Source: Candidatus Helarchaeota archaeon
Lineage (GTDB): Archaea > Asgardarchaeota > Lokiarchaeia > Helarchaeales > RDOG01
Assembly: GCA_029838215.1 (NCBI GenBank)
Contig: JALGVI010000026.1
Location: 1 to 34,702, forward strand
Length of the DNA: 34,702 nt
Direction of reading: 5' to 3'
The translations under genes were made by a program, and so were the position numbers. Below the pieces are notes generated by a model. That model was not told where the DNA came from and ran no database searches. It saw only the letters and a program-made list of their open reading frames with translations. Positions 6,299 through 33,924 of this stretch are shown here, in pieces; the first letter of the stretch is position 1; each line of letters opens with the position of its first letter.

Positions 6299-6574
6299 TC
6301 ATTCGATATTTTTCTTCACGAATGAATGAGTGTCTTCAATAATTTTTAGCCATCGAAAATATGAATTAACGACGGCACGAAATGAAGTTAAATCAGACGT
6401 GGAGATATCAAGCATGAGCGTGTTTTCATCTTTTTCGATAATTTTTAGTCTTATCCGGTCTTCTCGAGTAAATTCCGTTTCTGGTTTTAGTGCAAGATAT
6501 GCCACGTTTTTCTCGTGTGGGGATTCGAAAAATAAATTTATTGTTGCTTGGATTCTTTCTTGCAAATCATCCAC
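6299..6574 (-). CDS. pcc1: KEOPS complex subunit Pcc1
   Basis: ALKPE...LDISTSDLTSFRAVVNSYFRWLK motif; position before pfdB. Confidence 0.85.
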   Translation of the reverse strand: MDDLQERIQATINLFFESPHEKNVAYLALKPETEFTREDRIRLKIIEKDENTLMLDISTSDLTSFRAVVNSYFRWLKIIEDTHSFVKKNIE

Positions 6575-14406: not shown

Positions 14407-15333
14407 TTACCCCCAGAGAGCTTTCAAAGCAAGTGATGCTAGTGCCTTTTTAATTTCAAGTGTCTTCATCAGCGTATTGGTAACGAGAACTTCCATTCCT
14501 AACCGCTCGATCTGCTCCTTTTGAGATTTATCTTGCTCGTCTATGATGAATGTATTAACAAAATCACGGTATAATGTTGCCACACCACGACTGGAAACTT
14601 CTAGCTCGAGTCCCTTCATCAAGCGATCAAGAGGACCTTTTACGGGAGCATTACCAATAAGGGGAGAGATACCTATAATGGGTTTTTTCGTGCTTTTGAT
14701 CGTTTTTTTAATTTTAGGAACGCTGAGAATGGGTCCAATGCTTACCAATGGGTTGCTAGGGCATATAATAAAACCTTCAGCTTTTTCGATGATTGACAGC
14801 AATCCTTTTGGGGGATTTGAGGATTCAATGTCCTTGTAAATGATCTCATGAACAGGATCCTCAGCTCGATTCTTGATCATGTATTCTTCAAAATGAATTA
14901 CCCCATCGGATGTTCTAATTTGCGTGGGTACCTTTTGGTCAGTCATTGGATAGAGTCGTGCTTTTATTCCTAACGTATTACAAAGGTGATGCGTGATTTC
15001 AGTAAGTGTATATCCTTCTCGAAGCATTTTCGTTCTTATTAAATGAGTTGCGATATCTTTATCACCCAATAAGAACCACGTTTCCTCCTTGTATCGACGA
15101 AGCATTTCCAAGCAGTTTGTTGAATCATCATTAACACCCCATCCCGTGATGGGATTTACGATTCCTGCCAACGTGTACATGATGATATCGAGATCAGGAG
15201 AAATTTCAAGACCGAAAAGGGTAATATCATCGCCGGTATTGATTATTAAGCATAAATCTTCGGAGTCTATTTCACGCACGAGCCCCGAAATGAACTTTGC
15301 GGCACCAACACCCCCTGCTAACACAACAATCAA
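14407..15333 (-). CDS. cofD: LPPG/EPPG:FO transferase CofD
   Basis: VLAGGVGAAKF, NTGDD, SPDLD, LGDKDIATH, FEEY, CPSNPLVSIGPIL. Confidence 0.97.
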   Translation of the reverse strand: MIVVLAGGVGAAKFISGLVREIDSEDLCLIINTGDDITLFGLEISPDLDIIMYTLAGIVNPITGWGVNDDSTNCLEMLRRYKEETWFLLGDKDIATHLIRTKMLREGYTLTEITHHLCNTLGIKARLYPMTDQKVPTQIRTSDGVIHFEEYMIKNRAEDPVHEIIYKDIESSNPPKGLLSIIEKAEGFIICPSNPLVSIGPILSVPKIKKTIKSTKKPIIGISPLIGNAPVKGPLDRLMKGLELEVSSRGVATLYRDFVNTFIIDEQDKSQKEQIERLGMEVLVTNTLMKTLEIKKALASLALKALWG

Positions 15334-15944
15334 AATGTTTCACTCCACGTGTTGCCGTGCAATACTTCATCTAGAGGCCGCCTTCTAGGGGTGATAGGAT
15401 GTTCTTTTCCATAACCAAGAGTGATGAATGCTTGTGGCTCCACATGTTCGGGTAGAGATAGACATTCACTCACGATGCTTGGGCAGAATAAGGGTGCACA
15501 ATACCAGCAAGTTGCCAATCCTTCAACGTGAGCGGCAAGTAATAAATTCTGAATGGCAGCACTTACGCTTTGGATCATTAGGAGGCGTTCAGCTTCTTTT
15601 CTATGATCGGAATATTTTTCCATGTGTTCAGTTGTAAGGCAAGCGACAATTAAAACAGGAGGATTCGTGAATTTTGAGATCGAATGCTCACAAATTTTTT
15701 GAATTTGCTCAGCATTTACACCATCTTTTTCCAAATCGGCTTTATATTGCTCAGCCATCCGTCTTGCCAGATTCATCTTCTTTTTTTCATTATCTAAGAT
15801 TAGAAAATGCCAGGGTTGAGAATTATGAGCAGAAGGAGCATGAATAGCAGCATGAACGATCTTTTTAATGAGTTCAAGATCAACGGGCTGATTGGTATAT
15901 TTACGAACACTTCGCCGGGTAATTATATAATCAAGAGAATCCAA
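15330..15944 (-). CDS. Nitroreductase-fold flavoprotein resembling the FbiB C-terminal domain (candidate dehydro-F420-0 reductase)
   Basis: RRSVRKY, APSAHNSQPWHF, QNLLLAAHVEGLATCWYCAPLFCP...EPQAFITLGY; 4-nt overlap with cofD. Confidence 0.85.
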   Translation of the reverse strand: MDSLDYIITRRSVRKYTNQPVDLELIKKIVHAAIHAPSAHNSQPWHFLILDNEKKKMNLARRMAEQYKADLEKDGVNAEQIQKICEHSISKFTNPPVLIVACLTTEHMEKYSDHRKEAERLLMIQSVSAAIQNLLLAAHVEGLATCWYCAPLFCPSIVSECLSLPEHVEPQAFITLGYGKEHPITPRRRPLDEVLHGNTWSETF

Positions 15945-16890: not shown

Positions 16891-17145
16891 TTAGAACAAT
16901 CCGCTAAACGAGAAGATGATCATGAAAATAACCATTACAATGATCATTCCAAACATTGCAAAAGTCGTGTATTTTGACTTTTTCTCTTTCTTTTTCTTCC
17001 ACTTATAATATTCGCCCGAGCATTTATTTGAGCAATATTGCCGATTGATAGGAATGGCAATGCCACATACTTGACAATGCGCGTGTGGTTCCCATTTTTT
17101 AATCCATTTTTGTTTCTTTTGTGAAGTTTCGGTCGTAGTTGAGAT
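16891..17145 (-). CDS. DUF2116-like Zn-ribbon membrane protein; start inferred at ATC 17145 (the ORF-track start at 17283 lies inside the ncRNA on the opposite strand)
   Basis: EPHAHCQVCG...YCSNKC followed by a Lys-rich stretch and one C-terminal TM; SD-like GGACGTGAT 3 nt before ATC. Confidence 0.75.
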   Translation of the reverse strand: MSTTTETSQKKQKWIKKWEPHAHCQVCGIAIPINRQYCSNKCSGEYYKWKKKKEKKSKYTTFAMFGMIIVMVIFMIIFSFSGLF

Positions 17146-17202
17146 GAAATCACGTCCAAATATCCTGAAATCAATAGCAGATAATAAATGGAAGGAATAC
17201 TT

Positions 17203-17217
17203 AAAAATATTTATTAT
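17203..17217 (+). promoter_or_regulatory. BRE/TATA-like promoter (AAAAATA-TTTATTAT) for the K-turn RNA
   Basis: TATA-like box at 17210-17217 lies about 23 nt upstream of the first nucleotide of the terminal stem. Confidence 0.5.
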
Positions 17218-17238
17218 GCGGAATGAGTTATTAAAAAG

Positions 17239-17325
17239 TGGAGGGGAGATGATGTCGTCGCCCCAACCTGATTCGTAGTCCAACCGCGAGCGTGATGAAC
17301 CGAAGCGACGAGTTGATCCCTTCCA
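17239..17325 (+). ncRNA. Box C/D-type RNA with two K-turns (C/D and C'/D'), a terminal stem and self-paired guide regions
   Basis: Terminal stem (T)GGAGGGGA/TCCCTTCC(A); box C ATGATG 17249-17254; internal stem TCGTCGC/GCGACGA; D' CTGA 17268-17271; hairpin TTCGT/GCGAG; C' GTGATGA 17292-17298; D TTGA 17313-17316; both K-turns have a 3-nt bulge; GC-rich island in AT-rich intergenic DNA. Confidence 0.8.
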
Positions 17326-17345: not shown

Positions 17346-19772
17346 TTAAAGGCTAGCAGCATAGAGAAAATTCATGGAATCGTCATAGATTTTATTGCAT
17401 GTTGTCTGATTATTATAGAAAGCGAGCGTATTTGTATTTAAGGGAGTATCGGGAAAGACAAAATCCGTTAATGGTCCAACCGTGAAGTATGATTGAACGA
17501 TTGGAATGAGAAGAATTTTTCCCGGATATGAATTGTTAAAAGCATTTAGCAAGTCATCATAATAATCAGGGTAAAGGGGAATTACCGTTTTTCCTCCTAC
17601 GGATATTTCATTGATCACTTGTAACGTTTGATATGGAGACCAAGTCACGCCTTCGATTAGATATTCGAGTCGAAAGTCTGCTGTGAAATAATATTCAATA
17701 TTTGGTTGATTTGCCATCCATTGCATCATGTTGTATTCAGAATTAGTGTTTGCTTGCAGATTTGGATACAAAGAATATGGTGCAAGGAATGTTAAAGGAA
17801 GTGCAGAACCGAGTACGATTCCAAAAGTAAATATCTTGATCAAAGTCTGGTGTCGTCGTTTGGTTAGAGACCGCCATGTCCCGACAATTAACATTGCCAT
17901 GAGAATCCCATTGAAATCATACATGATTTGAAGAATTCGACCAAAGTATGCATCGCCAACGAAAAATCCAAAGCATAATGTGAGATATACGTTGCCAAGC
18001 ATCGCCCCACATATGAACATTCCTTCAGGGCCTAGACGGTTATATGCCATTGCAAATCCCAAGAATATGACGAAAACAGAAATCAAGTGTATGTACACGA
18101 TCACTAGCAGGATGCCGAAATTAATGCTTGCCATGAACTCAGACATGACTGTCGTGCCCAGCAAGAGCCAGATAAATGGATTACCCAAGAAAATGATGAA
18201 TCCAGCGATCACAATCAAAGCACCTTTAGAATAATCAAAAAGAGGACCTCGTGGAATTGGATGCCGACGCAAGTGTAATTTAATGAAAACAGGAGTCATA
18301 ATGGTAATTAGTAAAAAGAGGAAGAAATAGAAAATTTTACCTAGGTCGAGAAAGAATGGAGCCTGAGAGGAAAAAGTACTGCTCGATAAACATCCTGTTG
18401 TAAATGAAAGAGAAATAGGTAGGAACGATAGCAGGGTATTGAAAAGAAGTCCTCCATAGAAATAGAGAGACCAGCCTCCATAAAAGATTATTCCTAAAGT
18501 AGAAGAAATTAGGAGAAATTTATTGTAATTCTTCGTGAAATATAAGAAAATATTAATGATCACGATCATGAAAATTAATGACGTGCTAGTGATGACATGA
18601 CTCATCGTCATGTACATGCAAAAGATTGTCATGAGTAAAGCGTCTTGCCATCTCGCTTCGTGTTTTGTCCTAATAAAAGCAAACAGTGTTAGGGGAATAA
18701 AAGCGTAAGAAATCATTTGGGGAGTAACCGAAGATGAATAGATCACGGAAAAAAAGCAAACGATAGAAGTGAAAAAGCAGCTCAGTACCAAGATTTTCTT
18801 ATCACGAGTAAGCCGATAAGCAAGAGCGGTAATGGCAATTATGCTAATGACTGAATTAAAAATATTAGTGATGTCAAAGGTTAGGAAAATGGAAGAACCT
18901 GTGATGTAAGAAACTCCAACCAACAACAGATATAACCCCGGAACATAGCCTTGGTAATAACCCGATTGGAATAGGAGAATACCGTCAGTCATGGCGACCC
19001 GAACTTGAGCATAATGAACCCATGGATCAAGAGGAAAGTTTATGGGGAAATTTGCTTGAAGCAAGGCGGTCCAAATCCGAATCAAGATACCTGTCAGGAA
19101 GGACAAGGCGAATAAGATTATTATATACCGGTTTCGCTTGAAATATTGAATGGAAGGAATTTTTTGATGGCTTGTTGGGGACCTCATTCGTAATAATAAA
19201 AGAATACTGCCCAGTATTAAGCTAATCAGCATTGCAAGATAATTAAAAAGTAGAGATAGACCAAAAATCGTAAAATTCAAGATAAAAAGCAAGATAACTG
19301 AAATAAAAATGCTGGCTCCAAAAGCAAAAACGAGTTGTTCTTCCGGGCGTATAGAGTGCTTCCAAAAAATTATGCTGGTGAAAAAGTATCCAGGAATAAA
19401 ATAGAAGAGCAAAAGACCCAGAGGGATGCGTATCGAAAGCAACAAATCGCCCAGATAAAACGAAAGAGAAAAAAATAATAAATACAATAAAATTCCAGAA
19501 AGGAGAAGCCAAACATCCAAATTTTGTATCAAGGCAGAAACAAAACGGTTTTTTTCACTAACGGGTTGTGAAGATATTGCATCAAGCTCTCCGTTTTGAA
19601 TCATCCTTCGAATTAAATTCTTCTTGATTTTGAGATTTGAAGAATCATCTTCTTCTAGGTGTTGTAAGATTTTATCAATGCTCAATGTCTGATGTTCTTT
19701 AAGCAGGGATATTATTTGGTTCTTAAGTTTAGCCTCGTTATTTGAGGTCGAGAATATTTTCTGACGAACCAT
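17346..19772 (-). CDS. Large polytopic membrane protein: N-terminal HTH-like segment + DUF1616-like TM module + GT-C-like glycosyltransferase region
   Basis: KNQIISLLKEHQTLSIDKILQHL (wHTH-like); RIPLGLLLFYFIPGY...EQLVFAFGAS (DUF1616-like); DPWVHY acidic loop after a TM; C-terminal soluble domain. Confidence 0.7.
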   Translation of the reverse strand: MVRQKIFSTSNNEAKLKNQIISLLKEHQTLSIDKILQHLEEDDSSNLKIKKNLIRRMIQNGELDAISSQPVSEKNRFVSALIQNLDVWLLLSGILLYLLFFSLSFYLGDLLLSIRIPLGLLLFYFIPGYFFTSIIFWKHSIRPEEQLVFAFGASIFISVILLFILNFTIFGLSLLFNYLAMLISLILGSILLLLRMRSPTSHQKIPSIQYFKRNRYIIILFALSFLTGILIRIWTALLQANFPINFPLDPWVHYAQVRVAMTDGILLFQSGYYQGYVPGLYLLLVGVSYITGSSIFLTFDITNIFNSVISIIAITALAYRLTRDKKILVLSCFFTSIVCFFSVIYSSSVTPQMISYAFIPLTLFAFIRTKHEARWQDALLMTIFCMYMTMSHVITSTSLIFMIVIINIFLYFTKNYNKFLLISSTLGIIFYGGWSLYFYGGLLFNTLLSFLPISLSFTTGCLSSSTFSSQAPFFLDLGKIFYFFLFLLITIMTPVFIKLHLRRHPIPRGPLFDYSKGALIVIAGFIIFLGNPFIWLLLGTTVMSEFMASINFGILLVIVYIHLISVFVIFLGFAMAYNRLGPEGMFICGAMLGNVYLTLCFGFFVGDAYFGRILQIMYDFNGILMAMLIVGTWRSLTKRRHQTLIKIFTFGIVLGSALPLTFLAPYSLYPNLQANTNSEYNMMQWMANQPNIEYYFTADFRLEYLIEGVTWSPYQTLQVINEISVGGKTVIPLYPDYYDDLLNAFNNSYPGKILLIPIVQSYFTVGPLTDFVFPDTPLNTNTLAFYNNQTTCNKIYDDSMNFLYAASL

Positions 19773-20875: not shown

Positions 20876-20982
20876 TGGACCTGGCGGGCTTGTCGTCTCA
20901 ATGGAGAAAGATCCGTTGAAATATCGATCCCGCGACCTCCTCGATGCCAACGAGGTGCGCTACCAGACTGCGCTACAGGCCC
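20876..20982 (-). tRNA. tRNA-Ala(GGC) with a 33-nt intron at 59/60 (intron 20890-20922); CCA not encoded
   Basis: Acceptor GGGCCTG/CAGGTCC with G3:U70 and A73; anticodon stem CCTCG/CGAGG, loop TTGGCAT; T-stem GCGGG/CCCGC; BHB with bulges ATA and AAG, central helix ATCG/CGAC, intron stem TTTCAA/TTGAGA. Confidence 0.93.
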
Positions 20983-28571: not shown

Positions 28572-28675
28572 TGGTGCAGGAGAGGAGATTTGAACTCCCG
28601 ACATCCAGCATTTTGAAGGCTTCCTTTACGGAAGTTTCGTCAAGCTGGCGTCATAACCAACTAGACCACTCCTGC
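28572..28675 (-). tRNA. tRNA-Val(GAC) with a 27-nt intron at canonical 37/38 (intron 28611-28637); CCA encoded
   Basis: Acceptor GCAGGAG/CTCCTGC; Val-type D arm GTGGTCTAG..GGTTATGAC; stem CCAGC/GCTGG; BHB central helix TTGA/TCAA; intron hairpin CTTCC/GGAAG; TTCAAAT T-loop. Confidence 0.9.
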
Positions 28676-33809: not shown

Positions 33810-33924
33810 TGGTGCCGAGAGCGAGATTTGAACTCGCGACAACTGGATCTTCAGTCCAGCGCTTTCGAGACCTACTTGGCTTGTCGGTCAGCCACGCACT
33901 TCTCCCGACCTAAGCTACCTCGGC
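33810..33924 (-). tRNA. tRNA-Phe(GAA) with a 38-nt D-arm intron, best fit 22/23 (intron 33864-33901); CCA encoded
   Basis: Acceptor GCCGAGG/TCTCGGC; intact anticodon arm CTGGA-CTGAAGA-TCCAG; T arm GCGAG-TTCAAAT-CTCGC; BHB central helix CGGG/CTCG with bulges AGA and AAA; intron hairpin TGGCT/AGCCA. Confidence 0.92.

Follow-up and report, generated by a model that had tools for sequence, protein, structure and literature searches.

A box C/D RNA locus in a Helarchaeales genome with predicted guides for the 23S rRNA P-loop and, probably, helix 89

The window, by which we mean the whole stretch of 34,702 nucleotides of Candidatus Helarchaeota DNA that was analysed, carries at positions 17239-17325 of the + strand the elements of a box C/D RNA, set between two genes that both lie on the minus strand. 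One of these is an 808-aa membrane-like ORF ending at 17346 and the other a DUF2116 zinc-ribbon ORF (16891-17283), whose TTG start at 17283 falls antisense inside the RNA and whose Pfam domain runs from residue 65 onward. From the TTG at 17283 to residue 110 this ORF has no in-frame ATG, GTG or TTG.

Read from the sequence, the RNA is bounded by the two strands of a terminal stem, UGGAGGGGA (17239-17247) and UCCCUUCCA (17317-17325), which pair over 9 bp including one G-U with a duplex energy of -15.2 kcal/mol. Inside this stem box C (AUGAUGU, 17249-17255) faces box D, here the variant UUGA (17313-17316), and the non-consensus letters are the U at position 7 of box C and position 1 of box D. 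Box C is followed by the 12-nt D' guide CGUCGCCCCAAC (17256-17267), which pairs with the organism's own LSU rRNA, by box D' (CUGA, 17268-17271) and by a hairpin that closes the C'/D' K-turn (17272-17290), in which UUCGU (17272-17276) and GCGAG (17286-17290) form 5 bp, two of them G-U, around the 9-nt loop AGUCCAACC. Box C' (GUGAUGA, 17292-17298) and the D guide ACCGAAGCGACGAG (17299-17312) complete the molecule, the D guide being 14 nt long against 12 nt for the D' spacer and 12-13 nt for the D spacers of the relatives described below. A guide-guide helix of 7 bp can form between UCGUCGC (17255-17261) and GCGACGA (17305-17311). Both motifs fit K-turn geometry: at each, the GA of D or D' runs directly into a stem, tandem G-A pairs can form, and three nucleotides bulge out of the strand that carries C or C', these being GAU (17248-17250) at the C/D motif. 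The RNA is about 87 nt long when the terminal stem is counted, and boxes C to D span 68 nt. The boxes C, D', C' and D occur in this order on the + strand only, which bears out the initial annotation in its reading of the locus as an unannotated Asgard box C/D RNA with two K-turn-type motifs, and each of the elements that it described is present on the + strand where it had been placed. A TATA-like or BRE-like AT-rich box, AAATATTTATTATG (17205-17218, + strand), is also present, at about 25 nt upstream of 17239 where about 23 nt had been given. We infer a candidate promoter from it, in an AT-rich genome (38.6% GC) in which such boxes are common.

In predicted folding the RNA exceeds chance only weakly (z = -1.97; 10 of 200 shuffled sequences do as well), and the minus strand folds about equally well. 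The architecture is more distinctive, as a genome-wide scan for a terminal stem with boxes C, D', C' and D returned five matches against none in reversed-sequence controls, the RNA at 17239-17325 being the sole one of the five with a canonical layout. A relaxed genome-wide scan for C/D boxes was dominated by coding GAUGA repeats. The window's genome (G000) holds a second C/D-like RNA at C11:~6330-6445 on the + strand, with a 9-bp terminal stem (GGAGAAGUC/GGCUUCUCC), degenerate boxes CGAUGA and UCGA, canonical D' and C' boxes and a spacer of 26 nt that can fold into a hairpin.

The comparison with Rfam that the initial annotation had proposed gave no match at the site of the sRNA at gathering threshold, the window having three tRNA matches only. 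In a permissive scan the best score was that of snoPyro_CD (17.8 bits against a cut-off of 45), followed by snR67 (15.6 against 55) and sR3 (13.0 against 41), all of which miss their gathering thresholds, and U3 gave no match even at E values up to 10. The three tRNA matches lie on the minus strand at 20925-20982, 28575-28675 and 33813-33888 and none is detected by ARAGORN in default mode; one has a 30-nt insertion in the anticodon loop, probably an intron, and another scores 30.1 bits, barely above threshold, and has no T arm. The protein partners expected of a box C/D RNA are encoded in the same genome, with the fibrillarin and Nop5 genes adjacent on contig C122 and an L7Ae gene on contig C71. 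All three of the partners named in the initial annotation are accounted for as genes, and from how the class works they would be expected to bind this RNA.

The D' guide pairs with the organism's own LSU rRNA at 2672-2680 (UGGGGCGGC) over 9 bp, eight Watson-Crick and one G-U, with a duplex energy of -19.7 kcal/mol. The nucleotide in the N+5 position is G2674, which a MAFFT alignment to E. coli rrlH equates with E. coli G2251 of the P-loop. This is the G that RlmB methylates in E. coli and that yeast, humans and plants modify by means of snoRNPs (PMC11542601); archaeal C/D sRNAs are predicted to target its equivalent in three organisms (PMC4644070). Taking membership of the guide class to consist in at least 8-9 bp of guide complementarity together with a sensible N+5 site, the D' guide reaches 9 bp and the G2251 equivalent. 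The initial annotation had reported that no target could be identified by eye, and this is superseded by the comparison of guides with rRNA that it suggested, which gives the P-loop with an exact N+5. A match of this length is not rare by chance, since about 5% of half-mers match real and decoy rRNA alike, and a genome-wide scan for a half-mer plus a 9-mer match to rRNA did not discriminate (114 real against 115 decoy matches). Because rRNA matches alone are weak evidence, weight was placed on register, site identity and conservation. On these grounds the D' guide is predicted to pair with the 23S P-loop and to direct methylation of the G equivalent to E. coli G2251.

A putative archaeal precedent for P-loop guiding, the 'Gm1950' sRNA of H. 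volcanii, was considered and set aside, its stated target CGGGGGUAAC not being the P-loop sequence. Table 1 of PMC11542601 equates H. marismortui Gm1950 with E. coli Gm2251. That equivalence looks doubtful from the sequences, because the halophile sRNA predicted for Gm1950 in Additional file 7 of PMC2584109 pairs with CGGGGGUAAC and not with the P-loop sequence UGGGGCGG.

The core of the D guide, GCGACGA, pairs over 7 bp with UCGUCGC at 2883-2889 of the organism's own LSU rRNA, on the 5' side of helix 89 (E. coli 2457-2463), and places U2886, the equivalent of E. coli U2460, at N+5. This uridine is probably a second methylation target, as judged from guide and register, and in the literature consulted we found no record of 2'-O-methylation at the U2460 equivalent. 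The helix 89 duplex of the window copy, at -13.5 kcal/mol, is the second-weakest among the family copies and its 7 bp fall short of the 8-bp guide threshold of Lui et al. 2018 (PMC6009581). No long target for the D guide was found anywhere in the genome, where only G-U-rich chance matches occur, and the best alternative match (C90:19950) was rejected as lying antisense inside a 441-aa ORF. The helix 89 arm of the window copy, eroded to 7 bp, may be weak, orphan or a folding aid only. The organism's own 23S rRNA, 3467 nt overall, has an insertion of about 96 nt in apical helix 89, 13 nt after the target of the D guide (LSU ~2903-2998; L001:1970-2065, minus strand, on G000:C165), which is absent in the genome of the sister genus and in E. 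coli and may represent an expansion segment or a small intron of the rRNA.

Copies of the RNA were sought in related genomes by several routes of differing sensitivity. BLAST against 60 relatives matched only G001, a genome of the sister genus in the same GTDB family, and a scan of the genome contigs of the whole collection gave only G001 (recorded as MAG Candidatus Helarchaeota LW55_61) and one chance bacterial match. Scans of metagenome contigs gave nothing and then one chance match in GC-rich bacterial coding sequence, and sequence patterns, which proved too strict, returned almost nothing from 400 genomes of the phylum or from the five others of the order. A looser two-core pattern added G254, of family f4, although BLAST of this copy against 60 genomes of its family gave no match. 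A profile built from three copies then gave full-length matches in G002 (family f2), in G003, G005 and G006 (family f3) and in G280, G281 and G282 (family f7), together with many partial matches in f4. The family now counts 10 full-length copies from five GTDB families of the Lokiarchaeia-level class, within diverged flanks. One further candidate homologue, in G262, was rejected, as it has a P-loop guide and an unclear D box. MAFFT misaligned the C' and D' boxes, so the copies were parsed by box anchors and the closing stem was not assessed by RNAalifold pair counts.

All 10 copies follow one plan, with box C, P-loop guide, D', spacer, C', helix 89 guide and D in that order. The helix 89 core stands in fixed register to box D in every copy, with one substitution each in G002, where it reads GCAACGA, and in G282. 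On the P-loop, N+5 falls in exact register in eight of the ten and is one base off in two; an additional base precedes D' in G280 and G282. Duplex energies range across the copies from -18.9 to -24.3 kcal/mol for the P-loop and from -10.3 to -21.3 kcal/mol for helix 89, the latter pairing extending over 8-11 contiguous bp in six of the nine relatives and over 10-11 contiguous bp in G001, f3 and G282. The helix 89 and P-loop sequences in the rRNA of G001 and G006 are identical to those of the window's genome; for most relatives the rRNA is not assembled and the guide-target pairing given here assumes a conserved rRNA sequence. At guide positions 9-11 U and C alternate opposite three G residues of the rRNA in most copies, which fits selection for pairing. 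A conserved UCCAAC in the D'-C' spacer was rejected as an extra rRNA pairing, amounting to 4 bp only and being absent from the f3 and f7 copies.

The boxes themselves vary in a manner that keeps them paired. Positions 5 and 6 of box C and positions 2 and 1 of box D show pairing-preserving changes in most relatives, the pair between position 6 of box C and position 1 of box D being G-U, A-U, G-C, U-G or U-A in different copies with the exception of G282 (G opposite A), and variants include AUGAUUC with GAGA or AAGA in f3 and AUGAUA with UUGA in G001. Conservation in relatives, which the initial annotation had named as a check, is therefore seen both in boxes and guides kept in nine relatives and in pairing-preserving changes in boxes and stems. 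This bears directly on whether the locus is a functional RNA gene at all. Chance boxes, a decaying pseudogene or a K-turn element of a neighbouring mRNA might explain a folding z of only -1.97, the degenerate distal part of the D guide and the overlap with an ORF starting at the TTG at 17283 on the opposite strand. However, 10 copies in five families retain boxes and guides while their flanks have diverged, the pairing-preserving changes are spread over both stems, terminal and closing, as well as the C/D boxes, the genes on either side are both encoded on the other strand, and the overlapping ORF has its Pfam domain only from residue 65, so that such an origin is extremely unlikely.

Some further observations concern the surroundings and the other P-loop RNAs of the class. 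A 204-aa ORF near the sRNA (15330-15944, minus strand) has a 46%-identical homologue beside the G001 copy (L041:1291-1890, minus strand) in the other relative orientation, and the neighbourhood is partly conserved between the window and G001, with rearrangement. G254 carries both a window-type copy and an f4-type match (L050:1491-1554, + strand; L081:1725-1760), and its own helix 89, GUUGUCACGAG, is mismatched to the GCGACGA guide; its window-type copy may be an orphan guide, or the contig that holds it may be a contaminant, contamination in this genome being 7%. Genomes of f4 carry a different P-loop sRNA (L059, L063, L069, L072 and others; for example G035:C2:66440-66560), with the P-loop guide (UUGUCGCCCCAAA/U followed by CUGA) in the D position and a conserved CUUAUGACAA guide upstream. 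Between its halves lies a covarying hairpin (GCUGC/GUAGC, GCUAC/GUAGC, AGAGCU/AGCUCU), and hairpin-closed spacers therefore occur also in other P-loop guide RNAs of the class.

A close known counterpart is Sac-sR110 of Sulfolobus acidocaldarius (Dennis et al. 2015, PMC4644070), entered in Additional file 1 of that paper as CGCCGCUCCAGU-CUGC ... CAACGCGACGAG-CUGA with 5636 RNA-seq reads. As given in that entry it has both guide cores of the window RNA, in the same order and register, its D' guide CGCCGCUCCAGU being complementary to the P-loop (compare CGUCGCCCCAAC in the window) and its D guide CAACGCGACGAG standing before CUGA (compare ...GCGACGAG in the window), and the D' guide of the f3 copies, CGCCGCUCCAAU, is one base off that of Sac-sR110. 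The two differ in build. Sac-sR110 is compact, at about 56 nt; only 3 nt separate its D' and C' boxes, in a loop of K-loop type, both of its guide spacers measure 12 nt, and it lacks a long terminal stem. In the window RNA the terminal stem has 9 bp, the D'-C' spacer is a 20-nt hairpin and the D guide is eroded. Since Sac-sR110 has the same two guide cores, the family predates the window's lineage. In the same entry Sac-sR110 is listed without a predicted target (NP/NP), and a putative assignment of the P-loop and helix 89 as its targets therefore follows from the present work.

Other RNAs and enzymes share the target without sharing the family. Yeast snR67 (RF01177) guides 25S Gm2619, equivalent to E. 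coli Gm2251 (PMC11121408), and has in common with the window the P-loop guide GUCGCCCCAA, the same wobble U and the same register to D'. Unlike the window RNA it uses its second guide on Um2724 and not on helix 89 (PMC11121408), and by Rfam score it is not the same family (15.6 against 55 bits); the likeness of the guides may reflect the common target rather than descent. The archaeal P-loop sRNAs of three archaea (alignment position G2520, equivalent to E. coli G2251; PMC4644070) agree with the window in RNP class and target nucleotide but their partner guides, in the entries examined, aim elsewhere, such as at 23S U2544 or G2490, and not at helix 89. E. coli RlmB yields the identical product at the same conserved nucleotide (PMC11542601), but as a stand-alone SpoU-type methyltransferase that uses no guide RNA.

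Considered together, we put at roughly 85% the probability that 17239-17325 encodes a dual-guide archaeal box C/D sRNA directing methylation of the P-loop G and probably of the helix 89 U as well. By its guides and their register the RNA is assigned to a Sac-sR110-like P-loop/helix 89 dual-guide family and is not a new kind of RNA. The initial annotation had allowed that novelty alone would be lost should the RNA match a known family whose methylation target is standard, and this is what the comparison gives. From how the class works, L7Ae would bind the C/D and C'/D' K-turns, a Nop5 dimer would bridge both K-turn sites, and fibrillarin would methylate whichever rRNA nucleotide pairs with guide base 5, counted upstream from D' or D; the 7-bp guide-guide helix would have to melt on assembly of the RNP or on binding of the target.

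The significance of that helix was examined across the family. It has 7 bp in G000, 7-8 bp in G001 and 5-6 bp in f7, and it is broken in five of the 10 copies (f3, G002, G254), where pairing between the guides is no better than for shuffled guides. Nowhere does it show a compensatory change, and its strands are identical in G000 and G001. Five of its seven pairs follow from the rRNA targets, GUCGC of the P-loop guide, with its wobble U, being complementary to GCGAC of the helix 89 guide. In f3 the P-loop guide has C at the wobble-U position, which makes a Watson-Crick pair with the rRNA, and the helix is lost. Since five pairs are forced by the targets, compensation is absent and f3 loses the helix, the guide-guide helix appears to arise mainly as a side effect of what the two guides target, with some lengthening in the window's family. 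Of the self-paired guides described in the initial annotation, one part stands, in that both guides are predicted to be paired in the 7-bp helix in naked RNA (G000 and G001) and must open; as a conserved design they do not hold up, the helix being broken in half of the copies and never compensated.

A selected gate would be another way to read the helix, either keeping the RNA autoinhibited until assembly or presenting U17258 to fibrillarin for self-methylation. In its favour the pairing persists at 7 bp in G000 and 7-8 bp in G001 despite divergence in the rest of the D guide and in the D'-C' spacer, and few shuffled D guides pair as well (9 of 200 for G000, 3 of 200 for G001). Two nucleotides that are unpaired with the rRNA, 17256 (position 12 of the D' guide) and 17255 (the end of box C), are kept in both copies and lengthen the helix, and the sequence places a paired U of the D' guide at the N+5 position of the D guide. 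The absence of compensatory changes between strands that are identical in the two copies, the automatic origin of five of the seven pairs (GUCGC against GCGAC), the lack of a counterpart in f3, G002 and G254 and the restriction of the long version to two genomes all weigh against a gate, which we hold to be very improbable.

The sequestered guides might also be read, as the initial annotation had proposed, as those of a non-methylating scaffold or pre-rRNA chaperone that binds the C/D proteins and bridges the P-loop and helix 89 while the peptidyl transferase centre is being assembled. Full sequestration of the guides is predicted in the naked RNA of G000 and G001, the D arm of the window copy has no more than 7 bp, and dual guides to distant sites in one functional centre have been proposed as an aid to rRNA folding (PMC6009581). 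However, N+5 falls on a near-universally methylated G, exactly in eight of 10 copies and one base off in two, the guide-guide helix does not hold in f3, G002 or G254, and the P-loop duplex at -19.7 kcal/mol is about 7 kcal/mol stabler than the internal helix at -12.4; moreover chaperoning and methylation can coexist. With the D' guide set on a standard target at N+5, and the dual guide recurring in nine relatives and in Sac-sR110, we judge a purely non-methylating role unlikely and retain the methylation guide as the preferred reading.

The comparison with U3 gives way on the same grounds. Like the 3' domain of U3 snoRNA the window RNA has two K-turn-type motifs in one hairpin-like domain, a topological resemblance only, but it has no 5' domain and no complementarity to the pre-rRNA hinge, and both of its guides are on methylation-type targets.

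A stem-closed C'/D' motif is typical of eukaryotic snoRNAs, and the stems of the window RNA are best seen against those of its relatives. The terminal stem has 9 bp in the window, 3 in G001, 4 in G254, 6 in G280 and 5 in G282, is interrupted by a bulge in G281 (3+5 bp) and by an internal loop in f3 (4+8 bp), and shows compensatory GC/AU changes at two inner pairs. A stem closing C'/D', beginning right after D' and stopping one base before C', is shared, at 5-6 bp, by the window copy and each of the three f7 copies. Its sequences (UUCGU/GCGAG in the window; GACUCG/CGAGUC, GGCCC/GGGCC and GACUU/AAGUC in f7) have changed on both sides at four of five positions, and this is good evidence for a true C'/D' K-turn in the window and f7 lineages. 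G001, G002, f3 and G254 have no such stem and carry unstructured spacers of 10-18 nt.

Terminal stems of 6-8 bp are known in the C/D sRNAs of halophiles (PMC2584109, supplement). Because halophile sRNAs and copies of this family have such stems, a long terminal stem is not foreign to archaea, and the initial view that it is untypical of them gives way to its recurrence both here and in the halophiles (PMC2584109). Nor are the 9-bp terminal stem and the closed C'/D' motif fixed features, since both are missing in the closest relative, G001. Comparison of the copies indicates that the guide-RNA family is old and that the long stems are additions which vary among its members. A more far-reaching proposal would have the ancient P-loop/helix 89 guide acquire, in Asgard archaea of the Lokiarchaeia class, a eukaryote-like long terminal stem and a stem-closed C'/D' K-turn replacing a K-loop, and in the window's family a helix of 7-8 bp that gates the guides until the RNP assembles, giving intermediates in structure between compact archaeal sRNAs and eukaryotic snoRNAs with a regulatory or chaperone layer added to methylation; this we offer as speculation with a small chance of being correct.

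The variable occurrence of a closed C'/D' K-turn and of long terminal stems is a modest data point on the origin of snoRNA-like architecture. The analysis gives a previously unannotated Helarchaeales RNA gene a precise predicted target and ties the RNA to a dual-guide family in common with Sulfolobus, for whose Sac-sR110 it provides a putative target assignment. From the guides described here, the near-universal P-loop Gm appears to be made in Asgard archaea by way of a guide RNA, as in eukaryotes, and not by an RlmB-type protein.
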